Source of the DNA: Clostridia bacterium
Lineage (GTDB): Bacteria > Bacillota > Clostridia > UMGS1810
Direction of reading: 5' to 3'
Assembly (NCBI GenBank): GCA_045646525.1
Contig: JAZRKX010000038.1
Location: forward strand, 8,885-72,884
Length of the DNA stretch: 64,000 nt
The notes beneath the pieces were generated by a model. It saw nothing but the letters and a program-made list of their open reading frames with translations, was not told where the DNA came from and did no database searches. Shown one piece after another: positions 40,238-64,000 of this stretch. A program made the position numbers and the translations under genes. Each line of letters opens with the position of its first letter. Position 1 is the first letter of the stretch.

Positions 40238-40247
40238 TGGTGTATAT

Positions 40248-41206: not shown

Positions 41207-41234
41207 TCAATATACAATTAAGGAGAGGTATACA

Positions 41235-44967: not shown

Positions 44968-44996
44968 TCTCAAGCATATGTTAAAGGACGGATAAA

Positions 44997-47635: not shown

Positions 47636-47644
47636 GAGACGGTC

Positions 47645-48352: not shown

Positions 48353-48429
48353 TCCAAAATCGGTTTTTGTTGACAATTATAAAAGAAAAATGTATAATTA
48401 TGATACTACATAAGATGGAGAGGTATACT

Positions 48430-49068: not shown

Positions 49069-49125
49069 CAGATTGCCCCTTTGTCATATTGTGACAAAGG
49101 GGCAGTATTAAAAAGGAGGATTACT

Positions 49126-50394
49126 ATGAAGATAGAAACACAATGCTTACACGAGGGTTATCAGCCCGCAAACGGCGAGACCAATGTTCTCCCGATATAT
49201 CAGAGTACCACATATGCGTACGATTCTTCCGAACACATAGGCAAGCTCTTTGACCTTACGGAAGCAGGACATATGTATTCAAGAATATCCAACCCCACAG
49301 TAGAAGCTGTGGAGAAGAAGATTGCCGCTATGGAGGGCGGTGTAGGCGCACTTTGTACTACATCAGGTCAGGCAGCGTCGCTTATATCCCTGCTCAACAT
49401 ATTAAAGTCGGGCGACCACTTTATAAGCGCAGGCACCATATATGGCGGAACAATCAACCTTTTTGCCGTTACATTAAAGCGCTTTGGCATAGACATGACC
49501 TTTGTAGATGCCGACCTTCCCATAGAAGAACTTCAAAAATATATTAAACCCAATACCAAGGCAGTATTTGGCGAGACTATTGCCAATCCCGCACTTTCCG
49601 TATTGGATATAGAAAAGTTTGCCAAACTTGCACATAGTAACAACTGTCCTCTTATTGTAGACAATACCTTTGCTACGCCATTCCTCTGCAGACCCTTTGA
49701 GTTCGGAGCAGACATTGTTATCCATTCCACAACAAAGTATCTCGACGGTCACGCACTTCAGGTAGGCGGTGTTATAGTAGACAGCGGTAAATTCGACTGG
49801 GCAAACGGTAACTATCCCGAAATGACCGAGCCTGATGAGAGCTATCACGGCGTAGTATATACAAGAGATTTCGGAAATGCGGCATACATCACAAAGGCAA
49901 GAGTTCAGCTCATGAGAGACCTTGGTGTGTATCCGTCTGCTCATGCGGCATGGCTTCTTAATCTTGGCATGGAGACTCTCCATGTCCGTATGGAAAGACA
50001 TTGCCAGAATGCTCTTAAGTGTGCAGAGTTTTTAAAGAATCATCCCAAGGTGGATTTTGTAAACTATCCCGGTCTTCCCGATGATAAGTACAATACTTTG
50101 GCACAGAAATATCTTCCCAAGGGTACTTGCGGTGTTATAGCACTCTCCATAAAGGGTACAAGAGAAAATGCAGTTAAATTTATAGATAGCTTAAAGATTG
50201 CGCGAAACCTTGTACATGTTGCCGATATAAGAACATGTGTTCTTCATCCTGCAAGTTCCACTCACCGTCAGCTTACCGACGAGCAGCTTGTAAACTGCGG
50301 TATTACTCCCGGTCTTGTAAGACTTTCTGTTGGACTTGAAAATGTAGACGATATAATTGCCGACCTTAAGCAGGCTCTCGAACAAGTAGAATAA
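49126..50394 (+). CDS. O-acetylhomoserine aminocarboxypropyltransferase / sulfhydrylase (Cys/Met PLP family)
   Basis: Track ORF 49081..50394. The ATG at 49126 follows AAGGAGG. IETQCLHEGY..., SRISNPT and HSTTKYLDGH (PLP lysine) motifs. Confidence 0.88.
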   Translation: MKIETQCLHEGYQPANGETNVLPIYQSTTYAYDSSEHIGKLFDLTEAGHMYSRISNPTVEAVEKKIAAMEGGVGALCTTSGQAASLISLLNILKSGDHFISAGTIYGGTINLFAVTLKRFGIDMTFVDADLPIEELQKYIKPNTKAVFGETIANPALSVLDIEKFAKLAHSNNCPLIVDNTFATPFLCRPFEFGADIVIHSTTKYLDGHALQVGGVIVDSGKFDWANGNYPEMTEPDESYHGVVYTRDFGNAAYITKARVQLMRDLGVYPSAHAAWLLNLGMETLHVRMERHCQNALKCAEFLKNHPKVDFVNYPGLPDDKYNTLAQKYLPKGTCGVIALSIKGTRENAVKFIDSLKIARNLVHVADIRTCVLHPASSTHRQLTDEQLVNCGITPGLVRLSVGLENVDDIIADLKQALEQVE

Positions 50395-50401
50395 TTTTGG
50401 T

Positions 50402-50434
50402 AAAAAGGAAATTCCACAGGAATTTCCTTTTTTT
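50402..50434 (+). terminator. rho-independent terminator
   Basis: AGGAAATTCC-ACA-GGAATTTCCT followed by T7. Confidence 0.8.
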
Positions 50435-50519
50435 GTGCCTTTTTTACAAAAAGCTATTGAAAAACACAAAATATTGTGGTAAACTTTCTGTAACTAATAA
50501 AATTCCGGAGGGATAAAAA

Positions 50520-51872
50520 ATGAAAATGATTTATGGTGTTGAAGACAAACCGAAATTCGGACAGCTCCTCATTTTTGCAATTCAGCAGCTTCTTGCAATT
50601 ATGACAGCTACTCTTGTAGTTCCGGTTATCGTAGGTAATGGTATGAGCTCTGCTGCAGCTCTTTTCGGTGCAGGTATAGGTACATTGGTTTATGTACTCT
50701 TTACCAAGAAAAAGAGCCCTGTTTTCCTTGGCTCATCCTTTGCATTTATAGGCTCAATGGCTGCAGCTTTTGCAGGTGCCGTTTCTGTACAGGCAGGTTA
50801 CACAGGTCTTATAATCGGTGCTATATTTGCAGGTCTTGTGTACGTAGTGATAGCCACTATTGTTAAATTTGTAGGCGTCAACTGGATAGACAGACTCATG
50901 CCTGCAACAGTTATAGGTCCTGTAGTTGCTATAATCGGTCTCTCGCTTGCAGGAAATGCAATAGGCGATATAACCAAGGGAAGCATTCCCGATGTTGCAG
51001 CATCTCCGCTTGTTACAGTACTTTGCGGTATAATAACTCTTGTTGTTACAATAGTATCTTCTACTTACGGAAAGAAGATGGGCAAGCTCATTCCCTTTAT
51101 CTTCGGTATTCTCGGTGGATATGCAGCATGTGCTATATTTACAGCAATCGGTTTTGCGCTTAATGTAGATGCTCTTAAGATACTCAACACAGCTCCCTTT
51201 GCAGCACTTCTTACAGAAGGCAGGGTAACACTCGAAACATTCCTCTCTGTTCCCGATTTTACAATATCTACTGCAATTAAGGGTATTAAAGAAATCGATG
51301 CAGCTTATATAGGCAGCGTGGCTGTAGCATACATTCCTGTTGCATTCGTTGTATTCGCAGAACACCTTGCAGACCACAAAAACATATCTTCTATTATAGA
51401 AAAAGACCTTTTAAAAGAACCCGGTCTCCACAGAACACTTCTCGGTGACGGTGTAGGTTCTATCGTAGGTGCTATTTTCGGCGGTTGCCCAAATACAACA
51501 TACGGCGAATCCGTAGGCTGTGTTGCTATTACAAAGAACGCTTCTGTATATACAATCATAACTGCGGCAATACTTGCTATTGTTATATCTTTTGTATCTC
51601 CCTTTATAGCTTTCGTAAATTCCATACCCTCCTGCGTAATGGGCGGTGTATGTATGGCACTCTACGGCTTTATAGCTGTATCTGGTCTTAAGATGGTACA
51701 AAAGGTTGATTTAAACCAGAACAAAAACCTCTTTGTTGTATCTACAATTCTTATTACAGGTATAGGCGGTCTTACACTTACATTCGGCAAGGTAACACTT
51801 ACCTCCGTAGCGTGTGCACTTATACTCGGCATAATAGTAAATCTTGTAGTATCCAAGGTAAAAGAACAGTAA
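50520..51872 (+). CDS. pyrP: uracil/xanthine permease (NCS2 family), probably uracil permease
   Basis: 450-aa polytopic protein. QQLLAIMTATLVVP and the ...NTTYGE motif. It immediately precedes upp. Confidence 0.8.
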   Translation: MKMIYGVEDKPKFGQLLIFAIQQLLAIMTATLVVPVIVGNGMSSAAALFGAGIGTLVYVLFTKKKSPVFLGSSFAFIGSMAAAFAGAVSVQAGYTGLIIGAIFAGLVYVVIATIVKFVGVNWIDRLMPATVIGPVVAIIGLSLAGNAIGDITKGSIPDVAASPLVTVLCGIITLVVTIVSSTYGKKMGKLIPFIFGILGGYAACAIFTAIGFALNVDALKILNTAPFAALLTEGRVTLETFLSVPDFTISTAIKGIKEIDAAYIGSVAVAYIPVAFVVFAEHLADHKNISSIIEKDLLKEPGLHRTLLGDGVGSIVGAIFGGCPNTTYGESVGCVAITKNASVYTIITAAILAIVISFVSPFIAFVNSIPSCVMGGVCMALYGFIAVSGLKMVQKVDLNQNKNLFVVSTILITGIGGLTLTFGKVTLTSVACALILGIIVNLVVSKVKEQ

Positions 51873-51887
51873 TCAGGAGTGCATCTT

Positions 51888-52517
51888 ATGAAAAATGTTA
51901 CAATCTTTGACCATCCTCTTATTCTGCACAAGACTACTATATTAAGACAAAAGGATACTCCGAATAAGGAGTTTCGTGAGCTGGTAGAGGAGATAACCAT
52001 GCTTATGTGTTTTGAATCTCTGCGCGACCTTCCTTTAGAAGAGGTAGAGATAGAAACACCTATCAAAAAGACCACCCAGAAACTCATAAAGGGCAAAAAG
52101 CTTGCTGTTGTTCCCATACTTCGTGCGGGACTTGGCATGGTAAACGGACTTTTAAAGCTTGTTCCGTCTGCCAAGGTAGGACATATCGGTATGTACCGCG
52201 ACGAAGAAACGCTTGAGCCTCAGGAGTATTACTGCAAGCTTCCTGACGATATATCCAACAGACTTATAGTTGTGGTAGACCCAATGCTTGCAACAGGCGG
52301 CTCTGCGATAGATGCCATAACACAGATAAAATCCTATGGCGGTAAGCATATCAAATTCCTGTGCCTTATAGCTGCCCCCGAGGGTGTGGATGCTCTTACA
52401 AAGGCTCACCCCGATGTTGAGATTTACTGCGCAAACATAGACGAATGTCTTAACGAAAAGGGCTATATCGTTCCCGGTCTGGGCGATGCAGGTGACAGAA
52501 TATTCGGTACAAAATAA
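51888..52517 (+). CDS. upp: uracil phosphoribosyltransferase
   Basis: Track ORF 51879..52517. The ATG at 51888 follows [27 protein letters not shown] and [15 protein letters not shown] motifs. Confidence 0.93.
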
Positions 52518-52538
52518 GACTTTTATAAAGGTAGAAAA

Positions 52539-52576
52539 GGACACACCAATTTAGTATAAATCGGCGTGTCCTTTTT
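52539..52576 (+). terminator. terminator after upp
   Basis: GGACACACC...GGCGTGTCC (one mismatch) followed by TTTTT. Confidence 0.6.
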
Positions 52577-52885
52577 ATTGAAAATTATAGGTTTTTGTGG
52601 TAGAATATATTGAGATGATTTATCTTGAAAGTGCTTTTGTAGCAATCATTTCATTCTAGCTCCTAACATGATATAAACTTGCCACCAAAAAGGTTGGCAT
52701 CCGGATTATACAGTCTTTATAACATTGCTTATACAGCGCAATGAGAATTCATGCCATATCAAGTTTTGCGTGGAACGAAAATGCCTTTTGTTTTTTAACA
52801 AAAACTTCTTGAAAAATATTTAAAGATGTTGTATAATAATTTTGTATAATAATATTTGGAAGTATTAAAAAAGGAGGAAATTTTT

Positions 52886-53842
52886 GTGAAAAAGTTTATA
52901 GCAATTCTGATAACCATGGTAATGGTTGTTGCATTGGTTGCTTGCAGTGGCGCAGGAACTAAGATGACAATGGGTACAGGTGGTACAGCTGGTACATATT
53001 ATGGTTATGGCGGTGTTTTAGGACAGTACATTAAAAATAATGCAGGAATTGATGTTACTGTTGTTTCCACCGATGGTTCAAAAGCAAATATTCAGGGTAT
53101 TGCTGCCGGTGACTATCAGTTAGGTACAGTACAGTCAGATGTTATGGCATATGCTTGGGCAGGTACTCGTTCTTTTGAGAACGAAGGCAAAATTGATTCA
53201 TTCCGTACAGTTGCCGGCCTTTATGCAGAGACAGTACAGCTTGTTACAATGGACCCTGCCATCAAATCTGTAAAAGATTTAAAAGGTAAATCAGTTTCAA
53301 TTGGTGCTCCCGGTTCAGGTGTTTACTTTAATGCGATTGATGTGCTCGCGGCAGCAGATCTTACAGAAAACGATATTAATGCACAGTATCAGTCATTTGC
53401 TGATAGTGCAGATGCTTTGAAAGACGGTAAAATTGATGCTGCATTTATAGTTGCAGGTGCTCCCACACCCGCAATCACAGAACTTTGCACAACAAATGAT
53501 GCATACTTAGTTCCCATTGACGGCGAAGTTGCAGAAAAACTTATGGCTTCATGTGACTTCTACTCAGCACTTACAATTCCTGCAGGCACATATAACGGCC
53601 AGGTAGATGATGTTACAACAGTAACAGTTAAGGCAACCTTGATTGTTTCAGCTGATGCATCAGAAGATGATGTTTACAAATTAACCGCTGCAATCTTTGA
53701 TAACATCGAAGCAATCTCTGCCGAAAATGCAAAAGGTGCAGAATTAAGCTTAGAAAATGCAACACAAGGACTTACAGTTCCATTCCATGCAGGTTCTGCT
53801 AAATACTTCAAAGAAAAAGGAATCGAAGTAGCAGCACAGTAA
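52886..53842 (+). CDS. TAXI-family TRAP transporter solute-binding lipoprotein
   Basis: Track ORF 52856..53842. The GTG at 52886 follows AAGGAGG. Lipobox LVAC. MGTGGTAGTYYGYGGVL is the TAXI signature. Confidence 0.85.
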   Translation: MKKFIAILITMVMVVALVACSGAGTKMTMGTGGTAGTYYGYGGVLGQYIKNNAGIDVTVVSTDGSKANIQGIAAGDYQLGTVQSDVMAYAWAGTRSFENEGKIDSFRTVAGLYAETVQLVTMDPAIKSVKDLKGKSVSIGAPGSGVYFNAIDVLAAADLTENDINAQYQSFADSADALKDGKIDAAFIVAGAPTPAITELCTTNDAYLVPIDGEVAEKLMASCDFYSALTIPAGTYNGQVDDVTTVTVKATLIVSADASEDDVYKLTAAIFDNIEAISAENAKGAELSLENATQGLTVPFHAGSAKYFKEKGIEVAAQ

Positions 53843-53914
53843 TTAAGATTTTTTGGCTGCGGCGGGTTTCGCCGTGGCCTTTTTTGTAATATAACCGAGG
53901 AGAGAATTTTTAAG

Positions 53915-55849
53915 ATGTTATTCAAAAAGAAAACGCAAGCACCCCAGGAGACAATGGATCTGGATGCTGTTATGAAAAAATTTGACAGAGAATCAAACAC
54001 AAGAGTATGGGAAGGTGTGCCGAAGATTTTAGTTACATCTGTACTTGCTTTGTTTTCTTTGTTTTGCCTTTATGTAACGCTGTTTGCCAGTTGGCTCGAA
54101 GAACTTCGTCTCACGACTTTTGTGGCATTTATCATATTTATAGGGTACCTTATGTACCCTGTAAAAAAAGGTAAACAACGCACAAACTATATTCCTTGGT
54201 ACGATTTTATTATTATGATTCTGGGCACGGGAGCATTTCTTTATTATGCTTTTAATGCCAAAATAATCATCCAGCAGGGAAGTAATTTTGACTTGTACCA
54301 GATTATGATAGGTGTTGTGGGCGTTTTGGCTTTAATTGAGCTTTGCCGTCGAAGTGTTGGTCTGCCGATTATTATTGTGGCAGGATGCTTTGTGGTGTAC
54401 GCTTTGATATGGGGTCTTTCAAACCCCACCTTCACAGGCAAACTAAACTATATCATCCGCTATCTTTTCTACGGAAAAGAAGGTGTACTTTCAACACCTA
54501 TTAATGTGTGTTCCAAGTTTATTGTAGTGTTTATCATCTTTGGTGCATTTTTGGAGCGTACCGGAATTGCGGAATTTTTTATTAAAATAGCAAATGCCGT
54601 AGTAGGTAGATTTTCAGGCGGCCCCGCTAAAGTTGCGGTTGTAGCAAGTGCATTAGAGGGAATGGTATCAGGTTCATCTGTTGCAAACACCGTTGGTTCA
54701 GGATCGGTGACAATCCCTTTGATGAAAAAAACAGGCTATAAACCCGAATTTGCAGCAGCAGCGGAGGCATCTGCCTCAACGGGTGGACAGATTATGCCTC
54801 CCATTATGGGTGCGGCAGCATTTTTGATGGCTGACTATGTAGGTATGCCATACAGCAAGATCGTAGTATTGGCTATACTTCCTGCGGTTCTTTACTTTGC
54901 AGGTATATTTATAGCTGTTCACTTAGAAGCCAAAAAAGAAGGTTTGCGCGGATTGACACGAGAAGAATTACCAAAATTTCTTCCTTTGTTAAAAAAAGTG
55001 TATCTGCTTCTGCCTCTGTTGGTTTTGATTTATCTTGTAGGCACAAGTACGCGTTCTATTCAGTATGCGGCGGCAATCGCGATTGTTGTGGTGATTGTTG
55101 TGAGCCTTTTCAACAAAGGTAATCGCATTACACCCAAGCGCATCTGGGAGGCACTTGCTGCTGGCGGACAGGGTATGATTACTGTTGCGGCGGCGTGTGG
55201 TGTTGCAGGTGTTATTGCAGGAACTATCACTATGACAGGTCTTGCAAATATAATGATCAACGGAATTGTCGCATTAGCAGGCAATCAGATAATCATAGCA
55301 CTTTTTCTTACAATGCTTTGTTGTATCGTTTTGGGTATGGGCGTTCCCACTACCGCAAACTATTGTATTATGGCGGCAACCTGTGCACCTATTCTTATCA
55401 GAATGGGCGTGCCGATTGTTGCAGCGCATTTCTTTGTGTTCTATTTCGGTATCGTGGCAGATTTAACGCCACCCGTAGCGTTAGCGGCATACGCGGGAGC
55501 TGCCATCGCTCAGGCAAACCCGATGAAAACTGCAATTACTGCAACTAAACTGGCAATCGGTGCATTCATTGTGCCTTATGTGTTTGCATTAAACCCTGCT
55601 ATGCTTTTCATTGATACAACACCTGTTGAAATCATACTGATTTGTGCGACATCGTTAGTCGGTATATTTGCAGTGGCATCGGCATTAGAGGGATTCTTAA
55701 TTCATAGATTGACGTGGTATGAACGACTTATTGCAGTTGCGGGCGGATTGCTCTTAATCTATCCCGGAACTACAACTGACATCATAGGTATAGGATTTGT
55801 GGCAGTGACAGTTGCTGTCCAGATATTGACGAAAAAGAAAATGATTTAA
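53915..55849 (+). CDS. TRAP transporter fused (DctQM-like) permease, TAXI type
   Basis: 644-aa polytopic protein directly after the TAXI binding protein. Confidence 0.85.
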   Translation: MLFKKKTQAPQETMDLDAVMKKFDRESNTRVWEGVPKILVTSVLALFSLFCLYVTLFASWLEELRLTTFVAFIIFIGYLMYPVKKGKQRTNYIPWYDFIIMILGTGAFLYYAFNAKIIIQQGSNFDLYQIMIGVVGVLALIELCRRSVGLPIIIVAGCFVVYALIWGLSNPTFTGKLNYIIRYLFYGKEGVLSTPINVCSKFIVVFIIFGAFLERTGIAEFFIKIANAVVGRFSGGPAKVAVVASALEGMVSGSSVANTVGSGSVTIPLMKKTGYKPEFAAAAEASASTGGQIMPPIMGAAAFLMADYVGMPYSKIVVLAILPAVLYFAGIFIAVHLEAKKEGLRGLTREELPKFLPLLKKVYLLLPLLVLIYLVGTSTRSIQYAAAIAIVVVIVVSLFNKGNRITPKRIWEALAAGGQGMITVAAACGVAGVIAGTITMTGLANIMINGIVALAGNQIIIALFLTMLCCIVLGMGVPTTANYCIMAATCAPILIRMGVPIVAAHFFVFYFGIVADLTPPVALAAYAGAAIAQANPMKTAITATKLAIGAFIVPYVFALNPAMLFIDTTPVEIILICATSLVGIFAVASALEGFLIHRLTWYERLIAVAGGLLLIYPGTTTDIIGIGFVAVTVAVQILTKKKMI

Positions 55850-55911
55850 CATAAAATAAAAAAGATAATTATTCATTATTGTCATAGTCAGGCCTTTTTT
55901 CGACTGACTTC

Positions 55912-55947
55912 AAATCCCTGTTCGATACTGTATTGAACAGGGATTTT
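55912..55947 (+). terminator. strong terminator after TRAP operon
   Basis: AAATCCCTGTTC-N11-GAACAGGGATTT followed by T's. Confidence 0.75.
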
Positions 55948-56325
55948 GTAGCTGGGTTTGTCAGATTTCATCAATGGCTTGTGGAACAATCGACGATTGT
56001 CTATCGACAAAATAAGCGGCAACTGACTCGTATAGTCTGTTTAACTGAGATTGTGCCCAATGGAAGTAGAATCTGAAAAAGATTTTAATTTTTATTTTAG
56101 TTTTGCTTTTTGCTTTTGCGTTTATAAGGATTACAACTTCGACATATGAAAACATAAACCGGAGAAACAATAGAAATAAAGACTACCAAAGATTATAGTC
56201 AAATAGTTGTAGAAGAAAGCGATATTGCTGATTATAGAATATTTATAGATATTTCCGAAAAGTATAGTGCATTAGAACAGATTGAGGAGCCTTTTAGAAA
56301 AACAATCTCTTTGTATATGCAGGCA

Positions 56326-56354
56326 AATAATTTTTTGTTCCTGACTTGACACGA
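56326..56354 (+). repeat. cassette junction repeat, copy A
   Basis: AATAATTTTTTGTTCCTGACTTGACACGA is 28/29 identical to 57081..57109 and shares the core TCCTGACTTGACACGAG with the copies near 58005 and 59146. Confidence 0.8.
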
Positions 56355-56394
56355 ACTTTGTAAAGGATGTCGAATGATGTCGAAAATAAATATG

Positions 56395-56439
56395 TTGACA
56401 ATATCCTACAATTTGTATATAATATAAATTGTAGGATAT
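56395..56439 (+). promoter_or_regulatory. promoter of phd-doc with overlapping palindromic operator
   Basis: TTGACA-17 nt-TATAAT. The 14-bp arms ATATCCTACAATTT / AAATTGTAGGATAT bracket the -10 element. Confidence 0.65.
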
Positions 56440-56468
56440 ATTTATTGTATAAATAATAGGAGGTAATT

Positions 56469-56711
56469 ATGAATATAAATACTGAAACAATTACAACAAT
56501 GACAGAAGCAAATCAAAATTTTTCAAAAGTTGCAAAGGTGGCAGAAAATAATGGTCAGGCGGTTATATTTAAAAATAACAAACCTAAATTTTTACTGATA
56601 GATGTTGATTCAAATTCATATTTTGATATTACTGATGATGAAAAAATTGATGTTGCTGCAAAAAGAATTATGAATCGTTTTAAACCTGCGTTTGAGGAGC
56701 TGGCAAAATGA
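56469..56711 (+). CDS. phd: Phd/YefM-family type II antitoxin
   Basis: 80 aa. TITTMTEANQNFSKVAKVAENNGQAVIFKNNKPKFLLIDVD. Overlaps the downstream toxin gene by 4 nt. Confidence 0.8.
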   Translation: MNINTETITTMTEANQNFSKVAKVAENNGQAVIFKNNKPKFLLIDVDSNSYFDITDDEKIDVAAKRIMNRFKPAFEELAK

Positions 56712-57085
56712 TAAAATTAAGTAAAGAAAAGGTTTTACTCCTGCATCAACTGATTGCCGAAGAAACAGGCGGCAGTTTCGGTGTTCGAGATGTTGGTCTT
56801 TTGGAAAGTGCACTTAATAATGCATACGCCACTTTTGGTGGAGAAGAACTTTATAAAACAAAAGAAGAGAAAGCGGCAAGTCTTGGATTTTCGCTTATAT
56901 CAAATCACGCTTTTGTGGATGGTAATAAGAGAATAGGTGTATATGTTATGCTCACATTTCTGGAAGCAGAAGGTATAAAGATGAACTGTACTAATTCAGA
57001 TGTTGTAGATATGGGTCTGTCTGTTGCATCGGGCGAGATGAAATATGATGAAATTTTAAATTGGATAAACAAGTTCAAAAAATAA
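56708..57085 (+). CDS. doc: Doc (death-on-curing) Fic-fold toxin
   Basis: HAFVDGNKRIG is the Doc-type Fic motif. 125 aa. Confidence 0.85.
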   Translation: MIKLSKEKVLLLHQLIAEETGGSFGVRDVGLLESALNNAYATFGGEELYKTKEEKAASLGFSLISNHAFVDGNKRIGVYVMLTFLEAEGIKMNCTNSDVVDMGLSVASGEMKYDEILNWINKFKK

Positions 57086-57115
57086 TTTTTTATTCCTGAC
57101 TTGACACGAGTAAAA
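57081..57115 (+). repeat. cassette junction repeat, copy B (includes right-type inverted repeat GACTTGACACGAGTAAAA)
   Basis: AATAATTTTTTATTCCTGACTTGACACGAGTAAAA. It begins in the doc stop codon. Positions 57098-57115 are the exact reverse complement of 57831-57848. Confidence 0.8.
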
Positions 57116-57148
57116 TTTTTGTCGAATGGTGTAGAAAGAGGTGGGAAA

Positions 57149-57427
57149 ATGAAAAAGAAAGTCTTAAATGTAACACCATATATTGCAGGATTACTATATT
57201 TGGTTTATTGTATGGCTAATATAAATTATTGGGTTAAAAGTCATATGGGATTTGGATTTTATGTCTTGATTCCTTGGCTTATTGCTGCTGTACTTTCTAT
57301 ATCATTTATAGTGGCAAAGGTTTTGGCTAAAAAGAAATTTGCTTTTTATTTACCACTTTTCTTTCTTATTATTGGATTGATAATCAATATAGTTGGCTCA
57401 AATATTCCTTGTTGTGTTGGCGGGTGA
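57149..57427 (+). CDS. small three-helix membrane protein (cassette gene)
   Basis: Track ORF 57101..57427. The ATG at 57149 (MKKKVLNV) follows AGAGGTGGG. An in-frame TTG at 57119 would add the conserved MSNGVERGGK leader. Confidence 0.5.
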   Translation: MKKKVLNVTPYIAGLLYLVYCMANINYWVKSHMGFGFYVLIPWLIAAVLSISFIVAKVLAKKKFAFYLPLFFLIIGLIINIVGSNIPCCVGG

Positions 57428-57475
57428 TGCTTTAGAGATGCGCACCTATAAAGAATGTTGAAAGGAGTAGGGAAT

Positions 57476-57829
57476 ATGTTTAGAAAGAAAAAAACAGAAA
57501 AGCAAATCCCTGATAATACATATAGAGTTATTAAAATTAGCAAAGATGCATTATTTGAGTTTATTTATGAATCGTTTATAGATAACCAAGAAACTTTTTT
57601 TGATATAACTGACGGAACAAAAATCTTGACTTCTTTTGATATTGACTGGGAAGATGGTTCTTTTATAATGGTTGCACAAAATTGTAAAGACGAGCCACCA
57701 TTTTGTAACGAAATTGATGTTAGAAAAATATCTGATGCAATAGATGATACAACAGACACAATGTATGCTGATAATAGATATATTGAATTAACACAAGAAG
57801 AACTTGATGTTATTCAAGAAAAGGAATAA
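57476..57829 (+). CDS. small acidic cytoplasmic protein (cassette gene)
   Basis: Track ORF 57455..57829. The ATG at 57476 follows AAGGAG. No family recognised. Confidence 0.5.
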   Translation: MFRKKKTEKQIPDNTYRVIKISKDALFEFIYESFIDNQETFFDITDGTKILTSFDIDWEDGSFIMVAQNCKDEPPFCNEIDVRKISDAIDDTTDTMYADNRYIELTQEELDVIQEKE

Positions 57830-57830
57830 A

Positions 57831-58026
57831 TTTTACTCGTGTCAAGTCCTAAAATTTAAAACATTAGTTTGCCGATTTTAAATATTTACATATACTATCG
57901 GGAGCGAGAAAATCCAGTATTCTCGCGGGTTCTAATGGCTTTTGTTCAAGAAAAAATAGTGAAAACTAAGGGCAGAAAATAGTAGGTCCTATTATTCACT
58001 GTTCTCCTGTCTTGACACGAGTAAAA
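57831..58026. promoter_or_regulatory. 196-bp intercassette element 1 bounded by 18-bp inverted repeats (putative invertible promoter)
   Basis: Left repeat TTTTACTCGTGTCAAGTC (57831-57848) pairs with right repeat GTCTTGACACGAGTAAAA (58009-58026), 17/18 complementary. Inside are TTGCCG-16-TATACT and TTTACA-17-GAAAAT, both facing right, and a hairpin GCGAGAA-N9-TTCTCGC. Confidence 0.5.
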
Positions 58027-58069
58027 ATTATGTCGAATGCTGAATAACTATGTTGAAAGGTGTGAAAAT

Positions 58070-58609
58070 ATGAAGAAAACATTTTTAATACTTTCTATTG
58101 TTTTTACCTTTATTTTAGTAATATGTGCATTTAATTATAAATGGTTATATTATCGTTTTTATCCTTTTGACAGAATTACGGGGGAGTATGACATTACTGT
58201 AAATGGTAAAGAAACAAATACTGTTGACGAGTATTATGAGTACGAAAATGGCGGTAAAATTAGGCTTGAAAATGATACTGAAAACTTTAAAATTAAAGGT
58301 GGAAAATACGGTAGGTACGCAATAGGATTCGTGTTAAGCGAAGATGTTCTTTATAAACTCACTAATGATGAAAAGTTTAAAGGGAATGGTAATGTAGATT
58401 TGTCAGTTTCTTATTTGAATACAAATTGGTGGCATATATCAGAATTAGATATAGAAATAGATATTGTCAAAGACAGCGGTGAATGGTATGTATGCTATGA
58501 TGTGGAATTGGAAGAACCGCTGGAGAACTTTAAAGTTACAACTTCAAATGTGTCAAAGAAAATCAAATTGTCTGAAATTGATACTGCTGAAATTTTGATT
58601 GGTATCTAA
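58070..58609 (+). CDS. membrane-anchored extracytoplasmic protein (cassette gene)
   Basis: Track ORF 58037..58609. The ATG at 58070 (MKKTFLILS...) lies after GAAAGGTG. N-terminal TM helix. No family recognised. Confidence 0.5.
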   Translation: MKKTFLILSIVFTFILVICAFNYKWLYYRFYPFDRITGEYDITVNGKETNTVDEYYEYENGGKIRLENDTENFKIKGGKYGRYAIGFVLSEDVLYKLTNDEKFKGNGNVDLSVSYLNTNWWHISELDIEIDIVKDSGEWYVCYDVELEEPLENFKVTTSNVSKKIKLSEIDTAEILIGI

Positions 58610-58657
58610 TAATATCTTTTATAAATGATGTCTATTGATGTGAAAGGAAGTGCAAAA

Positions 58658-58948
58658 ATGAAGAGAGCGATAATATTCTTACTACATATACCACTGGCTA
58701 TATTTACATTGATTGAATACTTTATGTTTATGTGGTTTTGGGGCGGGGATGGAGCATTTGCCTTTTTCGGATGCGGAATAAGTTTTATAGTTTATTTGGC
58801 ATTACATATTTTTGCATATTTTAAGATTCAGCATAAGTTCAAAAAAATTATAGTATATAGTGCCATTGTACTTACGCCAATTTTAAGCATAATTACAATT
58901 TATTTGATACTTGCTCCGTTGTTTGGAATAACAATACAAGTTGCATAA
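58658..58948 (+). CDS. small polytopic membrane protein (cassette gene)
   Basis: Track ORF 58625..58948. The ATG at 58658 (MKRAIIFLL) lies after GAAAGGAAG. Three hydrophobic helices. Confidence 0.5.
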   Translation: MKRAIIFLLHIPLAIFTLIEYFMFMWFWGGDGAFAFFGCGISFIVYLALHIFAYFKIQHKFKKIIVYSAIVLTPILSIITIYLILAPLFGITIQVA

Positions 58949-58973
58949 AATATAAAGGACAATGAGCATTGTA

Positions 58974-59163
58974 TTTTACTCGTGTCAAGTCTATAAAAAT
59001 TAAACATTAGTTTGCCGATTTTGATATTTACATATACTATCGGGAGCGAGAAAATCCAGTATTCTCGCGGGTTCTAAGGAAAAGTGTTAAAGGAAAACAG
59101 TTGAAAAAATAGGGGAAAGTTAGTAGGTCCTATTATTCACTGTTCTCCTGACTTGACACGAGT
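58974..59163. promoter_or_regulatory. 190-bp intercassette element 2 bounded by inverted repeats (putative invertible promoter)
   Basis: Left repeat TTTTACTCGTGTCAAGTC (58974-58991) pairs with right repeat GACTTGACACGAGT (59150-59163). The interior is near-identical to element 1 over the promoter/hairpin part and the last ~35 bp, with a divergent ~45-bp middle. Confidence 0.5.
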
Positions 59164-59204
59164 CTATAAGAGATGTCGAATATTGTCGAAAGGGGAATGA
59201 TGTA

Positions 59205-59888
59205 ATGAAAAAATATAAAATGTCAGTTATAATTTCGATGTTGATAGTATTGTTGGTATTATTAATCTTTTCTTTATGCATCAAATATAAGCCTGGTTAT
59301 GTTTTTGAAAATGGAACATGGAACTATGTTTCGTATGACACGGCTGTTGGACGACGAGTAGATCCTATTGATGTCAAAAAACACGAGTTTAGAAAATTGA
59401 AATATAAAGATTTTGCAAGAGATAACGACAGTGTTTATTTTAAAAATAATAAAATTGAGGGTTCGGACCCGGAAACTTTTGAGGTGATTAGTACTGCAGA
59501 TAGACGGAGTTATGCGAAAGATAAAAATTATGTTTACATATACATCAAGAATGATTGGAGTGTTTTCAGGATAATTAACGCAGACCCCGAAACATTTGAA
59601 GTACTTGAGTTTCCATATGCAAAGGATAAAAACGATGCATACAATGGCACTTTACCATTGTTTGTAGATGATGTTTCGAAATTTGAAGTTCTTGATGGCG
59701 GAAGAATGTCAACATCTACTTCTGCAGAAGGTTTTTTAGGCGGTGCTACAAGGATTGAAAAAGAAATAAATTATAATAACGAGAAGTATAGTTTTGTTAA
59801 GGAGGCAGTCATATATTCAGACGAAGGTAGAGCGAAAACTGAGAAACTTGTTTATGAGGGATATATGATTGTTGAAGATAAACGATAA
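59205..59888 (+). CDS. DKNYY-repeat family protein, membrane anchored (cassette gene)
   Basis: N-terminal TM helix. Repeated units DNDSVYFKNNKI.GSDPETFEV, DKNYVYIY..., ADPETFEVL and DKNDAYNG. Confidence 0.55.
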   Translation: MKKYKMSVIISMLIVLLVLLIFSLCIKYKPGYVFENGTWNYVSYDTAVGRRVDPIDVKKHEFRKLKYKDFARDNDSVYFKNNKIEGSDPETFEVISTADRRSYAKDKNYVYIYIKNDWSVFRIINADPETFEVLEFPYAKDKNDAYNGTLPLFVDDVSKFEVLDGGRMSTSTSAEGFLGGATRIEKEINYNNEKYSFVKEAVIYSDEGRAKTEKLVYEGYMIVEDKR

Positions 59889-60001
59889 ATAGATTTTTTG
59901 TTTCTTATTTAACACTAGCCTAATACCAAAAGGCTTTGCATCTAAATCGTCTGTCCCGCATAAAAAGGATGTCGAATGGTGTCAAAAGGAGAGAGGCGGA
60001 A

Positions 60002-60251
60002 ATGAAAAAAAACAATCATAACAAATTTGATTATTGTTATATCATTCATTCTTTTTGACCCTTTACTAAACTATTTGGATAAATGGTCTGATACATACAG
60101 TTTGGGTGCAGAGATGGTTTTAGGAATGTTGACACCTCTTTTATTTGTCTTTTTTATTCTTTTGTCTTTGTGCTTGACATTATATTCGATTAGTAAAGAA
60201 TGTCGAATAAGGTTAGTTATATTAAAAATAGCCGTAACTGGCTTTTGGTAA
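60002..60251 (+). pseudogene. small membrane protein gene apparently split by an A8 homopolymer (cassette gene)
   Basis: The ATG at 60002, with RBS GGAGAGAGG and the conserved leader box, reads MKKNNHNKFDYCYIIHSF-stop. The 74-aa hydrophobic ORF (60027..60251) is in the +1 frame. With A7 instead of A8 the product would be MKKTIITNLIIVISFILF... Confidence 0.4.
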
Positions 60252-60484
60252 GACAACAGTATGAAAAAATTAAAAATATGTATCTGACCCGAAATGATAA
60301 TCATCCATCGCTTATTTGCTATATTAAAGCGGTGAATAATGTATATAACTCAGTACATAGATGATATGCAGAACAAACAATATAATTTTTTAATTAAATT
60401 TGCAGAAAATAAAATCTATAGAAAACATAAATTCTTTTGAACTGTATTTCGTATGTGATAATAGAGAAAAAGAGAGGAACACAT

Positions 60485-61324
60485 ATGCTTCAGGATTTAT
60501 CATTTGGAAGATTGGAAAACGAATACAAGAATATTTTGCCCAAGGATGAAGACACCGTTCTGTGCTTTAGAAATAGAGATATCTTAATGCTCAAAGAATC
60601 GGACGGCACTGTGTCATTTCCCAAATATAACGAAATTTCGTCCTGTACGGGCGGAAAATTCCGCTATGTGTTTACCATGCAGGATACAAAATACTTTTTG
60701 TATATGTTCGGGGAAGCAGAGTTTTCCAAACACAACTACACCTACATCCCCGTATCCGAATTAAGAAAGATAGAAACCAAGGATGCGTGCTTTGCCGTAA
60801 TGACGGCTTTGCACCTTAATGAGTGGTATCGTAAGCACCGATATTGCGGATGCTGTGCTCATGAGACCTCGCACGATGACAAGGAGCGCATGCTATACTG
60901 CCAAAACTGCGGAAATATGATATTCCCCGTGATTTGTCCTGCAGTTATAATTGCTCTTACGGACGGGGACAGGCTTCTTCTCAGTAAATATGCAGGCAGA
61001 AGCTATTCCAGATACGCGCTGTTGGCGGGATATACCGAAATAGGCGAAACTCTCGAGCAGACCGTTGAACGAGAGGTTATGGAGGAAGTAGGTCTTAAGG
61101 TAAAGAACATCCGTTACTACAAGAGCCAGCCGTGGGGAGTAGACGGAAGCGTGCTCATGGGCTTCTACTGCGACCTTGATGGAGACGATACCATACATCT
61201 TGATGAAACAGAGCTTTCGCTTGCAGGGTGGTACAATAGATACAGCCTTCCTGCACACGATGACGGTATAAGTCTTACAAGGGAAATGATAAGAATGTTT
61301 GAAGAGGGCAAAGAGCCAAAATAG
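60485..61324 (+). CDS. nudC: NAD+ diphosphatase (NudC-type Nudix hydrolase with zinc ribbon)
   Basis: Track ORF 60437..61324. The ATG is at 60485. CGCCAHET...CQNCG zinc ribbon and Nudix box GYTEIGETLEQTVEREVMEEVG. Confidence 0.85.
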   Translation: MLQDLSFGRLENEYKNILPKDEDTVLCFRNRDILMLKESDGTVSFPKYNEISSCTGGKFRYVFTMQDTKYFLYMFGEAEFSKHNYTYIPVSELRKIETKDACFAVMTALHLNEWYRKHRYCGCCAHETSHDDKERMLYCQNCGNMIFPVICPAVIIALTDGDRLLLSKYAGRSYSRYALLAGYTEIGETLEQTVEREVMEEVGLKVKNIRYYKSQPWGVDGSVLMGFYCDLDGDDTIHLDETELSLAGWYNRYSLPAHDDGISLTREMIRMFEEGKEPK

Positions 61325-61403
61325 TAAGGCAATAAGATTGATTTTATACTTTCGAGGTGTTATAATAATGAGGTAAAATCACAGGGCTTTTCGGAGGAGT
61401 ATA

Positions 61404-62540
61404 ATGAAATTTGTGCATTTATCGGATCTTCACATAGGAAAAAGAGTAAACGAATATTCCATGCTTGAAGACCAGGAGTATATACTTACTCAAATAATAA
61501 ATATAATAGATGAAGAAAAGCCCGAGTCAGTAATCATTGCAGGCGATGTGTACGACAAGACAGTTCCGTCTGCGGAGGCAGTTGAGCTTTTTGATGATTT
61601 TCTGGTACGTTTATCTCAGCGTAAGCTCAAGGTGTTTGTAATAAGCGGAAACCACGATTCGCCCGAACGCATAGCATTTGGCGGAAGACTCATGTCATCC
61701 GCGGGCATATATATGTCTCCTGTTTATAACGGAAGTGTAGATAAGATTGTACTTAGTGATAAGTTCGGAAAAATAAATGTATGGATGCTTCCTTTTGTAA
61801 AGCCCGTCCATGTGCGTAAGTTTACAGAAGAGGACATATCATCCTATACAGATGCTCTTAGAGTTGCAATAAGTAAGTTTGATTTAGACAAAACCGAGCG
61901 TAATGTGCTGATTACCCATCAGTTTGTAACGGGCGCACAGAGGACAGAATCGGAGGAGATATCCGTAGGGGGAACTGACAATGTGGATGTCTCGGTTTTC
62001 GATGGTTTTGACTATACGGCGCTTGGGCATATTCACCGCGCACAAAACTGTAAATCCGAGAGGGTGCGTTACTGCGGAACACCGCTTAAATACTCTTTTT
62101 CGGAGTCAAAGGACGAAAAGAGCGTTACTGTAGCGGAATTAAAGGAAAAGGGAACTCTCACTGTAAAAACACTTCCTCTTACACCCATGCGTGATATGGC
62201 GGAAATCAAAGGTAAATATGAGGAAATCATGCGTTTGGATTTCTATAAGAATACTACCTACACCGATGACTATACCCATATAACTCTTACCGACGAGGAA
62301 GAAATTCCCGATGCAATAGGTAAGCTTCGCACGGTATACCACAACCTTATGAAGCTTGATTATGATAATATCCGAACACGAAGTTCAAATTCTGTGGACG
62401 GTATAGAAAATATAGAACAAAAGTCGCCGTATGAGCATTTTTCTTGCTTTTACGAAATTCAGAACAATAAGCCGTTAAGCGATAAGCAAAAGGACTTTGT
62501 ACAAGCTCTTATTGACGGGGTATGGGAGGGAGATATATGA
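61404..62540 (+). CDS. sbcD: exonuclease SbcD (Mre11-type nuclease)
   Basis: MKFVHLSDLHIG, AGDVYD, SGNHDS and GHIH phosphoesterase motifs. Confidence 0.92.
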   Translation: MKFVHLSDLHIGKRVNEYSMLEDQEYILTQIINIIDEEKPESVIIAGDVYDKTVPSAEAVELFDDFLVRLSQRKLKVFVISGNHDSPERIAFGGRLMSSAGIYMSPVYNGSVDKIVLSDKFGKINVWMLPFVKPVHVRKFTEEDISSYTDALRVAISKFDLDKTERNVLITHQFVTGAQRTESEEISVGGTDNVDVSVFDGFDYTALGHIHRAQNCKSERVRYCGTPLKYSFSESKDEKSVTVAELKEKGTLTVKTLPLTPMRDMAEIKGKYEEIMRLDFYKNTTYTDDYTHITLTDEEEIPDAIGKLRTVYHNLMKLDYDNIRTRSSNSVDGIENIEQKSPYEHFSCFYEIQNNKPLSDKQKDFVQALIDGVWEGDI

Positions 62541-64000
62541 GACCTCATAAGCTTATAATGTCTGCCTTCGGTCCTTATGCCGAAAGGGTAGAAATCGACC
62601 TTCGCAAGCTGGGCGAAAGAGGACTTTATCTTATAACAGGGGACACGGGCGCAGGCAAAACCACCATATTTGATGCCATAACCTATGCACTTTTTGGAAA
62701 GGCAAGCGGCGAAAACAGAGATGCCTCCATGCTCCGTTCCAAATATGCAAATCCCGAAACACCCACCGAGGTTGAACTATACTTTTCTTGCAACGGCAAA
62801 GAGTACTACATAAAGAGAAACCCCGAGTATCAGCGCCCCAAAAGCCGCGGCGAAGGTTTTACATTGCAAAAGGCAGATGCATATCTTGAATATCCCGACG
62901 GCAAGGTTGTAACAAGGCTAAAGGATGTGGACAGCGCCGTTACCGATATCCTTGGTATCGACAGAAATCAGTTCACACAGATTTCCATGATAGCACAGGG
63001 TGATTTTTTAAAGCTTCTTTTTGCATCCACCGAAGAGCGAAAAAAGATATTTCAGAAGCTTTTTAAAACCCGCAATTACTATGCCCTGCAGGAGAGATTA
63101 AAGGCGGAATCGGGCAAGCTTGGAAGTGAATATGATGCTATAAAAAGCAGTATCGGGCAGTATATAAATGGTATAGTATGCATTGAGGATGACTCTCTTG
63201 GCATTAAGGTAAAAGAGGCAAAGGAAAACCGTCTTGGCATATCGGAAACCATAGAGGTTTTGGAAGAAATAATAGCAAAAGACATACTTGCCGAAGAAAA
63301 ATACAATGGTGAACTTACAGATTTGGACATAAAACTGGAGGAAATTGCAGGAGTGTTGGCACAGGCAAACACTATCATGACGGCAAAGGAAGCCTTAAAA
63401 AAGGCTAAGGCAGAGCTTGAAGAAGCGGAGAATTTGAGGTTAAGTCTTTCAAAACAGTTGGAGTGGGAGCAAATCCAAAGGGAAGAAATCGATGCCGTTG
63501 TAAAAAAGCTTGCGTCAATAGATGCCCAGATGTCGTACTACGATGAGTTGGAGGAAAAGAGAGGGCAGCTCTCCGCATTGACCTTGTCTGTAAACACAAG
63601 TGCCAAAAATCTTGATGCAAAAACAAAAGAGCATCAGCGTATAAAAGAGAGAATAAAAGAACTCGAAGATGAAATAAAATCACTTGCAAATATAGGTGCC
63701 GACAAAGCAAAAATTGAGGCAGAGTACAGAGAACTTTCAGCCAAAAAGGATTCTTTGGATAGTCTCGAATTAAAGATTAATGAAATGTATAGTCTTGAAG
63801 CGCAATTAAAAGAAGCACAGAATGATTATAGGATAAAGTCGGATACAGCCGATAAGCATAAAATAACATATGATTGTCTAAACAAGGCATACCTTGATGA
63901 GCAGGCGGGTATCCTTGCCGAAACACTTGAAGACAGTATGCCGTGTCCTGTATGCGGCTCTCTGTTGCATCCCAATCCTGCCCAAAAGTCTTCCAAGGCA
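62537..64000 (+). CDS. sbcC: exonuclease SbcC (Rad50-type SMC ATPase), 3' end outside the window
   Basis: The start overlaps the sbcD stop (ATGA). MRPHKLIMSAFGPYAERVEID...LYLITGDTGAGKTTIFDAI (Walker A), a long coiled coil, and a CPVCG zinc hook near 63940. The ORF is open to the window end. Confidence 0.9.
   Translation, partial: MRPHKLIMSAFGPYAERVEIDLRKLGERGLYLITGDTGAGKTTIFDAITYALFGKASGENRDASMLRSKYANPETPTEVELYFSCNGKEYYIKRNPEYQRPKSRGEGFTLQKADAYLEYPDGKVVTRLKDVDSAVTDILGIDRNQFTQISMIAQGDFLKLLFASTEERKKIFQKLFKTRNYYALQERLKAESGKLGSEYDAIKSSIGQYINGIVCIEDDSLGIKVKEAKENRLGISETIEVLEEIIAKDILAEEKYNGELTDLDIKLEEIAGVLAQANTIMTAKEALKKAKAELEEAENLRLSLSKQLEWEQIQREEIDAVVKKLASIDAQMSYYDELEEKRGQLSALTLSVNTSAKNLDAKTKEHQRIKERIKELEDEIKSLANIGADKAKIEAEYRELSAKKDSLDSLELKINEMYSLEAQLKEAQNDYRIKSDTADKHKITYDCLNKAYLDEQAGILAETLEDSMPCPVCGSLLHPNPAQKSSKA

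Follow-up and report, generated by a model that had tools for sequence, protein, structure and literature searches.

The region at positions 52611–60400 of the 64-kb stretch analysed here (contig JAZRKX010000038.1 of a Clostridia bacterium; hereafter, the window) is probably a chromosomal array of mobile gene cassettes, part of a system specific to one lineage of Clostridia. It has no recombinase of its own and in this respect is comparable to a cluster of attC sites lacking an integron-integrase (CALIN). The junctions heading its cassettes share a conserved composite sequence in a fixed orientation, comprising a 16-nt core and a downstream repeat (motif B). Gene modules shared between genomes have their boundaries at the core, and a 3′ tail that folds and bears a promoter is passed on together with the cassette preceding it. 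In other genomes, such arrays are linked to a trio of large serine recombinase genes. From these observations, we infer that recombination at the core is catalysed site-specifically, which recombinases are responsible and that the tail promoter is active. The gene-cassette system defined by this junction is previously undescribed; the papers searched neither print the junction and element sequences nor describe a relevant integron-like system in Clostridia.

On the + strand, copies of the core (CCTGACTTGACACGAG / TCCTGACTTGACACGAG) begin at positions 56339, 57094, 58005 and 59146, none with more than one mismatch, and partial inverted copies lie on the − strand at 57836–57852 and 58979–58995. 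A sequence-only reading of this DNA had listed four direct and two inverted copies, and exactly these six matches were recovered when up to three mismatches were permitted (0.04 expected from shuffled sequences), with no further match elsewhere in the 64-kb window. Motif B (ATGTCGAATGNTGTCGAAAG), which is part of a 10-nt periodic GTCGAAT-type repeat running into the ribosome-binding site, begins 10–13 nt 3′ of each core (four matches vs. 0.03 expected). The region read closely for repeats and junctions, by a repeat finder and by eye, spanned 55800–61000. Within it, the 29-nt repeats described previously around phd-doc (56326–56354 and 57081–57109) were confirmed by reading and by the open reading frames (ORFs); they are identical at 28 of 29 positions, and the second overlaps the doc stop codon (57083–57085). 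Cassette 2 is enclosed by perfect 21-nt inverted repeats. The degenerate core copy noted before the last cassette (59893–59915) and the possible vestige noted at the right border are likewise present, the latter as a T-run, ATAATTTTTTAATT, at 60382–60395, just left of the synteny break at 60400. Other degenerate junctions occur at 52670–52735, 55985–56075 and 60167–60213. The array is as AT-rich as had been noted, with a G+C content of 0.30–0.34 against 0.40–0.45 in the flanks. No terminators were found inside it, and it had no match in Rfam 15, either at the gathering threshold or at E-values up to 5.

The junction has weak dyad symmetry, with the best axis in the spacer and 12–13 of 22 positions matching, which is compatible with a serine-recombinase site but not diagnostic. 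A sigma-70 promoter formed by the TTGACA of the core and a −10 box was considered and rejected, as no acceptable hexamer occurs at 16–18 nt; the hexamers at these distances are CGAATG, GAATGA and AATGAT, TCGAAT lies at 15 or 17 nt, and a simple scan called no promoter. None of the consensus sequences for sigma-54, sigma-H, extracytoplasmic function, sigma-D and TcdR-type factors agreed with the core and GTCGAAT box in the two boxes as well as in their distance. A resemblance exists between the GTCGAAT box and the −10 consensus of sigma-H (RNNGAAT), but the matching −35 box is absent.

The composite junction is widespread among gut Clostridia. A scan of one genome per species with the pattern CCTGWCTTGACACGAN{8,16}TGTCGAAT found it in 103 stretches from about 89 species-level Clostridia metagenome-assembled genomes (MAGs), where fewer than one match would be expected by an estimate based on 27 specified bases and nine gap lengths. 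The core, which the sequence-only reading had proposed to seek at other cassette-like junctions, is therefore present at such junctions in about 89 other genomes. Hosts include Congzhengia, Ructibacterium, Aphodoplasma, Ornithomonoglobus and genomes labelled ‘Oscillospiraceae’, and the record titles give goat, yak, deer, buffalo and sheep guts as sources. Neither the junction nor the inter-cassette element described below was found in 2.9 million viral contigs (IMG/VR) or in plasmid and phage collections. In all 112 matches, the junction was aimed at an ORF starting 10–100 nt downstream. The distance from CTTGACACGA to the first GTCGAA was 11 nt in 72 and 13 nt in 29 of 123 cases, and past this box, a TG..GAAW pattern recurs every 10 nt and weakens towards the ribosome-binding site. 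Three kinds of sequence precede the core: a T-run (76 cases) or the right end of a type a or type b element. Between three and six cores per locus were found in 17 loci in addition to the window, and the cassettes in these arrays were all co-oriented and located behind unrelated housekeeping genes. Across the approximately 89 species, the core is better conserved than coding DNA.

The genes behind the junctions are highly diverse. The first ORFs behind 99 junctions fell into 83 families, and a Pfam scan of 59 of them identified 29 families, none occurring more than twice, with about half of the proteins having no family. Those identified include R2K ATP-grasp, Bro-N, Abi_alpha, Barstar, DUF2691, CAT, HNH, DUF559, a cation efflux protein, pyrophosphatase, aldo-keto reductase and polysaccharide deacetylase. 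Immunity-like cassettes among the 59 scanned proteins were limited to Barstar and a few candidates. The cassettes thus form a pool of accessory genes of all kinds, and the earlier suggestion of orphan immunity or surface-variation genes was not supported. The same cassette can be found behind different upstream contexts in different species, as was observed for a zinc-ribbon-repeat ‘MAEKKEK’ protein and for the phd-doc pair. A chloramphenicol acetyltransferase gene (Pfam CAT, 3.4e-18) is the first ORF behind the junction in one of the 103 loci, and thus, the pool holds at least one gene of an antibiotic-resistance type.

Comparisons of shared blocks among all loci (the comparison stretches from other genomes carry numbers with the prefix L) located the boundaries of these modules. 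Blocks of at least 400 bp with at least 88% identity were considered, and an end was scored as lying at the core when it fell between −30 and +20 of a direct core. The left end was at the core in 17 of 25 informative cases (0.33 expected), most exactly at CCTGA|CTTGAC, and 5 of 11 right ends stopped where the next core ends (0.14 expected), although part of these comparisons involved the same cassette family on both sides. At the residue level, sequences were unrelated up to the core and near-identical from CCTGA onwards; conversely, at right ends, identity ended after CTTGACACGA(G). These block ends indicate that the core is the site of module exchange. The clearest example was the comparison of L025 with L099, which share 2882 bp (98.4% identity) arranged as core, cassette, inverted core, element and core between unrelated flanks; this layout implies that the element travels with the upstream cassette. 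Together with the absence of the array from the closest relative, the breakage of shared blocks at the core supports the proposal of the sequence-only reading that the array was built by recombination.

The closest relative (NudC 94% identical, approximately 91% nucleotide identity; locus L184) is collinear with the window at 43876–52611 and 60400–64000. Between these segments, a CPBP-protease gene within 1.2 kb takes the place of the 7.8 kb in the window, and a comparison for cassette gain and loss, as had been advised, showed the interval from upp to nudC to be free of an array. In a more distant relative, this chromosomal place is occupied by an antiporter gene. Based on the synteny breaks at 52611 and 60400, the variable region spans 52611–60400 and includes an operon for a tripartite ATP-independent periplasmic (TRAP) transporter (52856–55849), which is its first unit and is missing from the closest relative at the same place. 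Compared with the extent proposed previously, its left border lies 3.7 kb further left. The corresponding place in L184 holds a leader of eight to nine copies of a different short motif, AGCTAAAT. Elsewhere in its genome (L020), the closest relative also carries the genes of cassette 3; the 97.4% identity begins at the ATG, and a core is missing in front of them. A metagenome scan with NudC returned only relatives with at most 59% identity, none with the core.

The two inverted cores in the window are the left ends of two copies of an approximately 172-nt inter-cassette element (82%–88% identical), and the right end of each copy is the next direct core. In copy 1, a promoter-like TTGCCG/TATACT (57869–57896) is followed by a GCGAGAA/TTCTCGC hairpin (ca. 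57904–57926). Mean identity among 18 copies of this type a element was 86%; a type b element of 246 nt corresponds to type a with a 74-nt insert. The fold predicted for type a by RNAalifold comprises an outer stem formed by inverted core and core, a CCGAU/AUCGG hairpin, the GCGAGAA/UUCUCGC hairpin and a third stem. Among the type a copies, the GCGAGAA/UUCUCGC hairpin has one compensatory variant, the third stem contains invariant G-U pairs and the outer stem has a U-G pair in six copies; these G-U and U-G wobble pairs fit the + strand only. The lower stem of the type b insert hairpin exists in two wholly different self-complementary versions, AAATATA/TATATTT and CCCAACA/TGTTGGG, which were read by eye as MAFFT and RNAalifold misaligned the hairpin of the 246-nt variant. 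Copy 1 of the window folded better than 200 of 200 shuffled sequences (z = −5.5 for + strand DNA, −4.7 for − strand DNA and −5.2 for RNA). The promoter-like sequence is generally TTGCCG, 15–18 nt and TATACT or TACTAT. A transcript started here would carry the GCGAGAA hairpin at its 5′ start and the core with the GTCGAAT repeats within its 5′ leader. Across approximately 40 genomes, none of 42 elements was flipped, as motif B never followed the core at the left end. When the 300-nt flanks of 52 elements were compared, the upstream flank alone was shared by three pairs and the downstream flank alone by four; no pair had both in common. A dif/Xer-like site inside the element was also considered and rejected, since only its XerD-like half resembles Bacillus subtilis dif.

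No recombinase is encoded in the 64-kb window, and the statement of the sequence-only reading that none was visible in the array can be extended to the entire stretch. Housekeeping genes and an unrelated AT-rich island account for the ORFs at 1–20 kb and 20.5–44.5 kb, and in the annotated relative that matches the flanks, nothing but housekeeping genes is present there. Clustering of 728 ORFs from the 103 loci revealed no recurrent tyrosine recombinase or transposase. The search for a linked recombinase, negative in the window, was positive in other genomes: tandem large serine recombinase genes occur upstream of the element at eight distinct loci (L047, L048, L095, L187, L188, L189/L190, L191–L193 and L194). 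L047, L048 and L095 have two or three such genes in tandem; the element follows within tens of bases in L047 and L048, and about 1.5 kb downstream, after an extra ORF, in L095. With the third recombinase of L048 as the query, a tight family of about 45 cluster representatives (70%–98% identical) was found. The neighbourhoods fetched on this basis (L187, L188, L189/L190, L191–L193 and L194) contain one module of approximately 6.8 kb with a DUF6870 gene and three recombinases (approximately 548, 554 and 511–521 residues), preceded by DUF6076 on the minus strand where the left side was resolved, except in L191, where it is missing. In L187, the DUF6076 gene is duplicated and accompanied by an HTH_17 gene.

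In these neighbourhoods, the element begins 30–250 nt past the last recombinase stop codon; next come a core or core-like sequence and more genes. Wherever the sequence was read, the promoter of the recombinase-adjacent element approaches the consensus more closely than that of other copies (TTGCAA, 17 nt, TGaTATAAT or TAAAAT). Genes found after the trio include phd-doc, an Apyc1-like lactamase, acyltransferases, PHP, RelB/YafQ, chromate transporters and an alpha-amylase. Additional downstream cores, and hence arrays, were detected in L189, L193 and L194 and not in L187 or L188; in L189, an iteron leader sits between the first core and the first cassette. Homology among the recombinase loci ends at the core. 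The last recombinase gene itself ends in a core-like sequence, GACTTGGCAG, which can pair with a decayed inverted core approximately 25 nt downstream.

Each cassette consists of a head (the 16-nt core, an 11- or 13-nt spacer, the 10-nt periodic GTCGAAT-type repeats and a ribosome-binding site), a body of one to three ORFs and, often, a tail of 172 or 246 nt with the inverted core on its left and the next direct core on its right. Cassettes would be gained, lost and exchanged through recombination in or right beside the core, so that any cassette could follow any other. The tail is predicted to carry an outward sigma-70-type promoter followed by a 5′ hairpin and would thereby help to express the next cassette. 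The catalyst is most likely a recombinase acting in trans, for which the large serine recombinase trio preceding arrays elsewhere is the best candidate; homologous recombination between conserved junctions (45–70 nt) might be an alternative or a helper. Pairing between inverted core and core could act either in single-stranded DNA, as in attC sites, or in read-through RNA, for insulation or processing. A more specific version, in which a platform of three serine recombinases, a consensus promoter and an iteron-rich leader assembles cassettes at the 16-nt core as a gene-capture system of Firmicutes, and in which the window would contain one of its arrays devoid of recombinases, is proposed only tentatively.

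Several observations weigh against a dedicated cassette system. The recombinase is absent from the window and does not adjoin most arrays, and no circular intermediate or within-species pair of empty and filled sites was seen. About half of the junctions consist of a T-run and a core only and have no inverted partner. No core was found at the left border of the recombinase module, and in L191, the trio lies behind Tn916-like regulators of the orf7/orf8 type; the trio may therefore simply serve to integrate a mobile element that has arrays as targets or neighbours. Moreover, the junction resembles an expression signal, with TTGACA and a T-tract in UP-element register, which could alone explain its conservation, and its conserved portion (approximately 45–70 nt) may be long enough for homologous recombination. 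Finally, all comparison sequences are MAGs assembled from short reads, in which mis-joins at repeats are not fully excludable.

The main rival to a cassette system holds that the junction is an expression module only: a portable unit in which a promoter is joined to a 5′ leader (UP-like T-tract, TTGACA, GTCGAAT box and ribosome-binding site), read by a housekeeping or lineage-specific sigma factor or regulator that controls an accessory-gene regulon, with the modularity arising from horizontal transfer and homologous recombination at the promoter without a dedicated system. We consider this explanation unlikely, although several observations fit it: the fixed orientation and short distance to a start codon at every site, the perfect −35 hexamer with a T-tract 8–15 nt upstream, the bipartite motif with dominant spacings of 11 and 13 nt, the same promoter-like layout in the variant modules X and Y, the textbook promoter in recombinase-adjacent elements and the array without internal terminators. 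Reuse of a promoter ahead of unrelated genes has also been documented (PMC3575422). However, TTGACA lacks an acceptable sigma-70 −10 hexamer at 16–18 nt, and where the element is present, the core sits downstream of the element promoter, in the would-be 5′ untranslated region. The promoter-bearing element is inherited with the upstream cassette and not with the gene that it would drive, and the inverted core at cassette 3′ ends is given no role. In addition, conservation of the core across about 89 species exceeds that of coding DNA, and the accumulation of breakpoints at the core is left unexplained.

The remaining explanations are less probable still. The 172- and 246-nt elements could be miniature inverted-repeat transposable elements (MITEs) of a MITE-, Correia- or REPIN-like type with terminal inverted repeats (GACTTGACACGAGTAA), the solo cores being decayed ends. 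Consistent with this would be the 14–21-nt terminal inverted repeats, the dozens of copies that are 75%–93% identical between genomes, the existence of a short and a long form distinguished by a 74-nt insert and, as in Correia elements, an outward promoter inside the element. It is improbable, however, given that the orientation relative to the downstream gene was constant (42 of 42), the right end always runs into motif B and a ribosome-binding site, and the left end directly follows a stop codon. Furthermore, no target-site duplications were seen at the element ends, no transposase with matching ends was present among the 728 ORFs, and more than 70 unrelated genes have in front of them a solo core whose motif B is complete. 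A classical integron array with very divergent attC sites and an IntI tyrosine integrase encoded elsewhere is very improbable, as the sequence-only reading had already argued for the junctions. It would account for small co-oriented cassettes with an embedded toxin–antitoxin pair and for a folded site bounded by inverted repeats that terminates the cassette and at whose 3′ end exchange takes place. Yet the elements end in TTACTCGTGTCAAGTC and GACTTGACACGAGTAA with no RYYYAAC or GTTRRRY, are 172–246 nt long (attC, 57–141 nt) and bear promoters, and the inverted half is missing at half of the junctions. A recurrent tyrosine recombinase was lacking among the 728 ORFs of the 103 loci, and Firmicutes had no complete integrons in a genome survey (PMC4889954). 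The likeness to a shufflon noted initially, or to an inverton, in which a recombinase would flip cassettes or the promoter-bearing element via inverted cores for phase variation, would be consistent with the 21-nt perfect inverted repeats around cassette 2 and the 14–16-nt inverted repeats around the promoter-bearing 172-nt segment. It is scarcely conceivable given that cassettes are co-oriented in all arrays and the element had the same orientation in each of the 42 cases, and both readings were rejected on the latter basis. The window region is hence best regarded, as proposed above, as a mobile-cassette array.

The features of the array are listed in Table 1.

Table 1. Features of the variable region, in order along the window (numbered from its first letter).
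Feature	Position	Strand	Basis or detail
Array leader	52611–52855	+	Synteny with L184 breaks at 52611
TAXI-type TRAP solute-binding protein	52856–53842	+	NCBIfam TRAP_TAXI, 1.8e-95
Fused DctQM permease	53915–55849	+	Pfam DctM
Junction J0, degenerate	55985–56075	+	Leader-like ACAATCGACGATTGTCTATCGACAAAAT, decayed core CTGACTCGTATAGTC, decayed motif B ATTGTGCCCAATGGAAGTAGAAT; resembles leaders and junctions of other loci
Cassette-gene remnants (pseudogene fragments)	56062–56333	+	blastn
Junction J1	56326–56386	+	T-run, core 56339–56355, motif B 56367–56386
phd-doc cassette	56395–57085	+	Pfam and NCBIfam; genes overlap by 4 nt
Junction J2	57081–57148	+	T-run, core 57094–57110, motif B 57119–57138, ribosome-binding site
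Cassette 2	57149–57829	+	92-aa three-helix membrane protein (57149–57427); 117-aa acidic protein (57476–57829)
Element copy 1, type a (ca. 172 nt between cores)	57828–58022	+	Inverted core 57831–57848, direct core 58005–58021
Junction J3	58005–58069	+	Core 58005–58021, motif B, ribosome-binding site
Cassette 3	58070–58948	+	Anchored 179-aa protein (58070–58609); polytopic 96-aa protein (58658–58948)
Element copy 2, type a	58971–59163	+	Inverted core 58974–58991, direct core 59146–59162
Junction J4	59146–59204	+	Core 59146–59162, motif B 59173–59192, ribosome-binding site
Cassette 4	59205–59888	+	DKNYY-repeat protein with N-terminal anchor; Pfam DKNYY, 4e-19
Junction J5, variant	59890–60002	+	Decayed core 59893–59915, module X TTGCATCTAAATCGTCTGTCCCGCAT (ca. 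59933–59958), motif B 59969–59988
Cassette 5	60003–60251	+	Small membrane protein, frameshifted; ORFs 59936–60058 and 60027–60251
Decayed junction (60167–60213), gene remnant and right border	60167–60400	+	Repeat; synteny with L184 resumes at 60400

The array leader contains a degenerate core and a promoter-like module Y (ca. 52670–52735; TTGGCA, 17–18 nt, TATAAC), and its part at approximately 52740–52800 is homologous to the ATATCGA-repeat leaders heading arrays in L055, L057 and L080. More generally, array leaders (window 52740–52800 and 55985–56020; L055 3263–3405; L057 3890–4036; L080 642–809; L189 11760–11990; L184 8740–8930) consist of four to nine copies of a short motif approximately 20 nt apart, which is (C)TCGATATG/ATATCGA in several genomes and AGCTAAAT in L184. 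From their sequence, these leaders look like iterated protein-binding sites with a specificity that differs between genomes. Another recurring feature is a GC-rich multi-hairpin sequence (AAAGCCTTCCCCTTGAGGGGAAGGTGGGTTGCGAAGCAACTCGGATGAGGTGG...) between motif B and the next gene in L016, L021, L034, L040, L047, L060, L084 and L194 (6355–6490); in seven related loci, this leader matched no Rfam family.

Among the cassette genes, Pfam and NCBIfam confirmed Phd, Doc, the DKNYY protein and the TAXI-TRAP genes, as well as NudC; the other cassette proteins had no family in Pfam, NCBIfam or PADLOC, and exact-protein look-ups of NudC, SbcD and the DKNYY protein matched no record. The remnants upstream of phd-doc correspond to L094 (56062–56164) and, with 83% identity, to the 3′ end of a cassette ORF in L063 (56167–56333; blastn). 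Adjacent Phd and Fic/Doc genes, with a palindrome over a consensus promoter, identify phd-doc as a type II toxin–antitoxin module. Its promoter (TTGACA, 17 nt, TATAAT; 56395–56423) agreed with the consensus at 12 of 12 positions in the promoter scan, and the overlapping 18-nt palindrome (ATATCCTACAATTTGTAT / ATATAAATTGTAGGATAT; 56401–56439), kept in L059, L062, L065, L078 and L194, is presumably the Phd/Doc operator. Copies of phd-doc in L059, L062, L065 and L078 are 84%–86% identical, and in three of them, a T-run and a core or core-like sequence follow. The two genes of cassette 2 also occur apart, with only the first in L010 and only the second, together with an inter-cassette element, in L001. 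Cassette 4 has 71% identical DNA in L063. Module X of junction J5 recurs in L015, L059, L065, L078, L193 and L194. The frameshift in cassette 5 lies in an A8 run just 3′ of the ATG (60003–60030), and one A less would give a membrane protein of 75–80 aa; slipped-strand phase variation, decay or a sequencing error could each explain it.

Three further observations were made outside the array. L041 (1–7024) and L079 (977–8000) share 7,024 bp including the junction with 100% identity, although these goat-gut MAGs (JAFQIA01 and JAFQQJ01) are filed as different species; either a very recent transfer or a binning or assembly duplicate is indicated. A second AT-rich stretch at 1–11340 of the window (28%–36% G+C) is followed by a tRNA gene (11449–11538, − strand). 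It encodes a YgjP-like metallopeptidase fragment, three ORFs without a family, a YspA/SLOG protein, a DUF1232 protein, two DUF4230 proteins and a HATPase_c_3 ATPase (4412–5878) adjoining a radical-SAM protein (5935–7605). No core, recombinase or PADLOC match was found in this stretch, which may be a defence or accessory island beside the tRNA gene. The window also contains a sigma-H-like gene (36430–37056, − strand) and a spoIIIA operon (37156–41774, + strand), so that the organism probably forms spores.

The textbook means by which bacteria stockpile and shuffle accessory genes is the integron, and how Firmicutes achieve the equivalent was left open by the genome survey (PMC4889954). A cassette system common to about 89 gut Clostridia species would, if confirmed, fill part of this gap. 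The cargo of the cassettes includes toxin–antitoxin, defence, resistance (CAT), transport and carbohydrate genes, and the core with its GTCGAAT box would provide a simple handle for mining the accessory genes of uncultured ruminant-gut bacteria. The system could also supply new pairs of recombinases and sites and a compact promoter–leader module for engineering Clostridia. Even if the junctions were portable promoters exchanged by homologous recombination, they would represent a clear natural case of modular gene swapping at a 16-nt boundary.

Several known systems share part of this organisation. Staphylococcal cassette chromosome (SCC) and composite SCC islands of staphylococci are composed of tandem cassettes delimited by short direct repeats, with the large serine recombinases CcrA and CcrB encoded in only some units; units without a recombinase are thought to be mobilised in trans. 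SCC units measure 20–60 kb and occupy one site (rlmH). Tandem units bounded by direct repeats are common to both, and large serine recombinase genes precede arrays at the eight loci from other genomes; the units described here, however, are 0.5–3 kb, occupy many chromosomal sites, are associated with three recombinases and have a junction that doubles as an expression signal. In particular, the single attachment site of SCC has no parallel, as the arrays lie behind many different housekeeping genes. Correia-type MITEs and REPINs are intergenic repeats of 100–250 nt with terminal inverted repeats, and Correia elements carry outward promoters. The inter-cassette element differs in having one orientation, in showing no target duplications and in connecting a stop codon directly with a ribosome-binding site. 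Putative mobile promoters (PMC3575422) are similar in that near-identical upstream sequences precede unrelated genes within and between genomes; here, in contrast, arrays are formed, the repeated unit has an inverted partner where cassettes end and shared blocks break at one 16-nt core.

In gut Bacteroidales, the repetitive intergenic sequences of rAID-1 arrays have been called ‘reminiscent of integrons’ (Ross et al., bioRxiv 10.1101/471110). Low-GC arrays of small co-oriented genes in gut bacteria and their horizontal spread are shared features. However, rAID-1 arrays have an XerD-like tyrosine recombinase at the 5′ end and mainly immunity genes as cassettes, whereas housekeeping genes or the serine-recombinase trio lie upstream of the Clostridia arrays, which also have a far wider range of genes, another repeat and hosts from another phylum. 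The arrays also parallel integrons and CALINs themselves, although the survey of complete genomes by Cury et al. (2016; PMC4889954) detected no complete integron in Firmicutes. Both have co-oriented, mostly small cassettes of unknown function with embedded toxin–antitoxin pairs, and in both, a folded 3′ site travels with the cassette and exchange occurs at its 3′ end, as observed here. The order of recombinase, promoter, primary site and cassettes in an integron platform is also the layout of the trio loci; part of the arrays lie behind such a platform and many have no recombinase nearby, as in CALINs. The differences are the conserved 5′ head running into a ribosome-binding site on every cassette and the identity of the array-linked recombinases, which are three large serine recombinases and not an IntI tyrosine recombinase. 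There is a fair chance that these arrays represent a distinct, serine-recombinase-based counterpart of integrons in Firmicutes.

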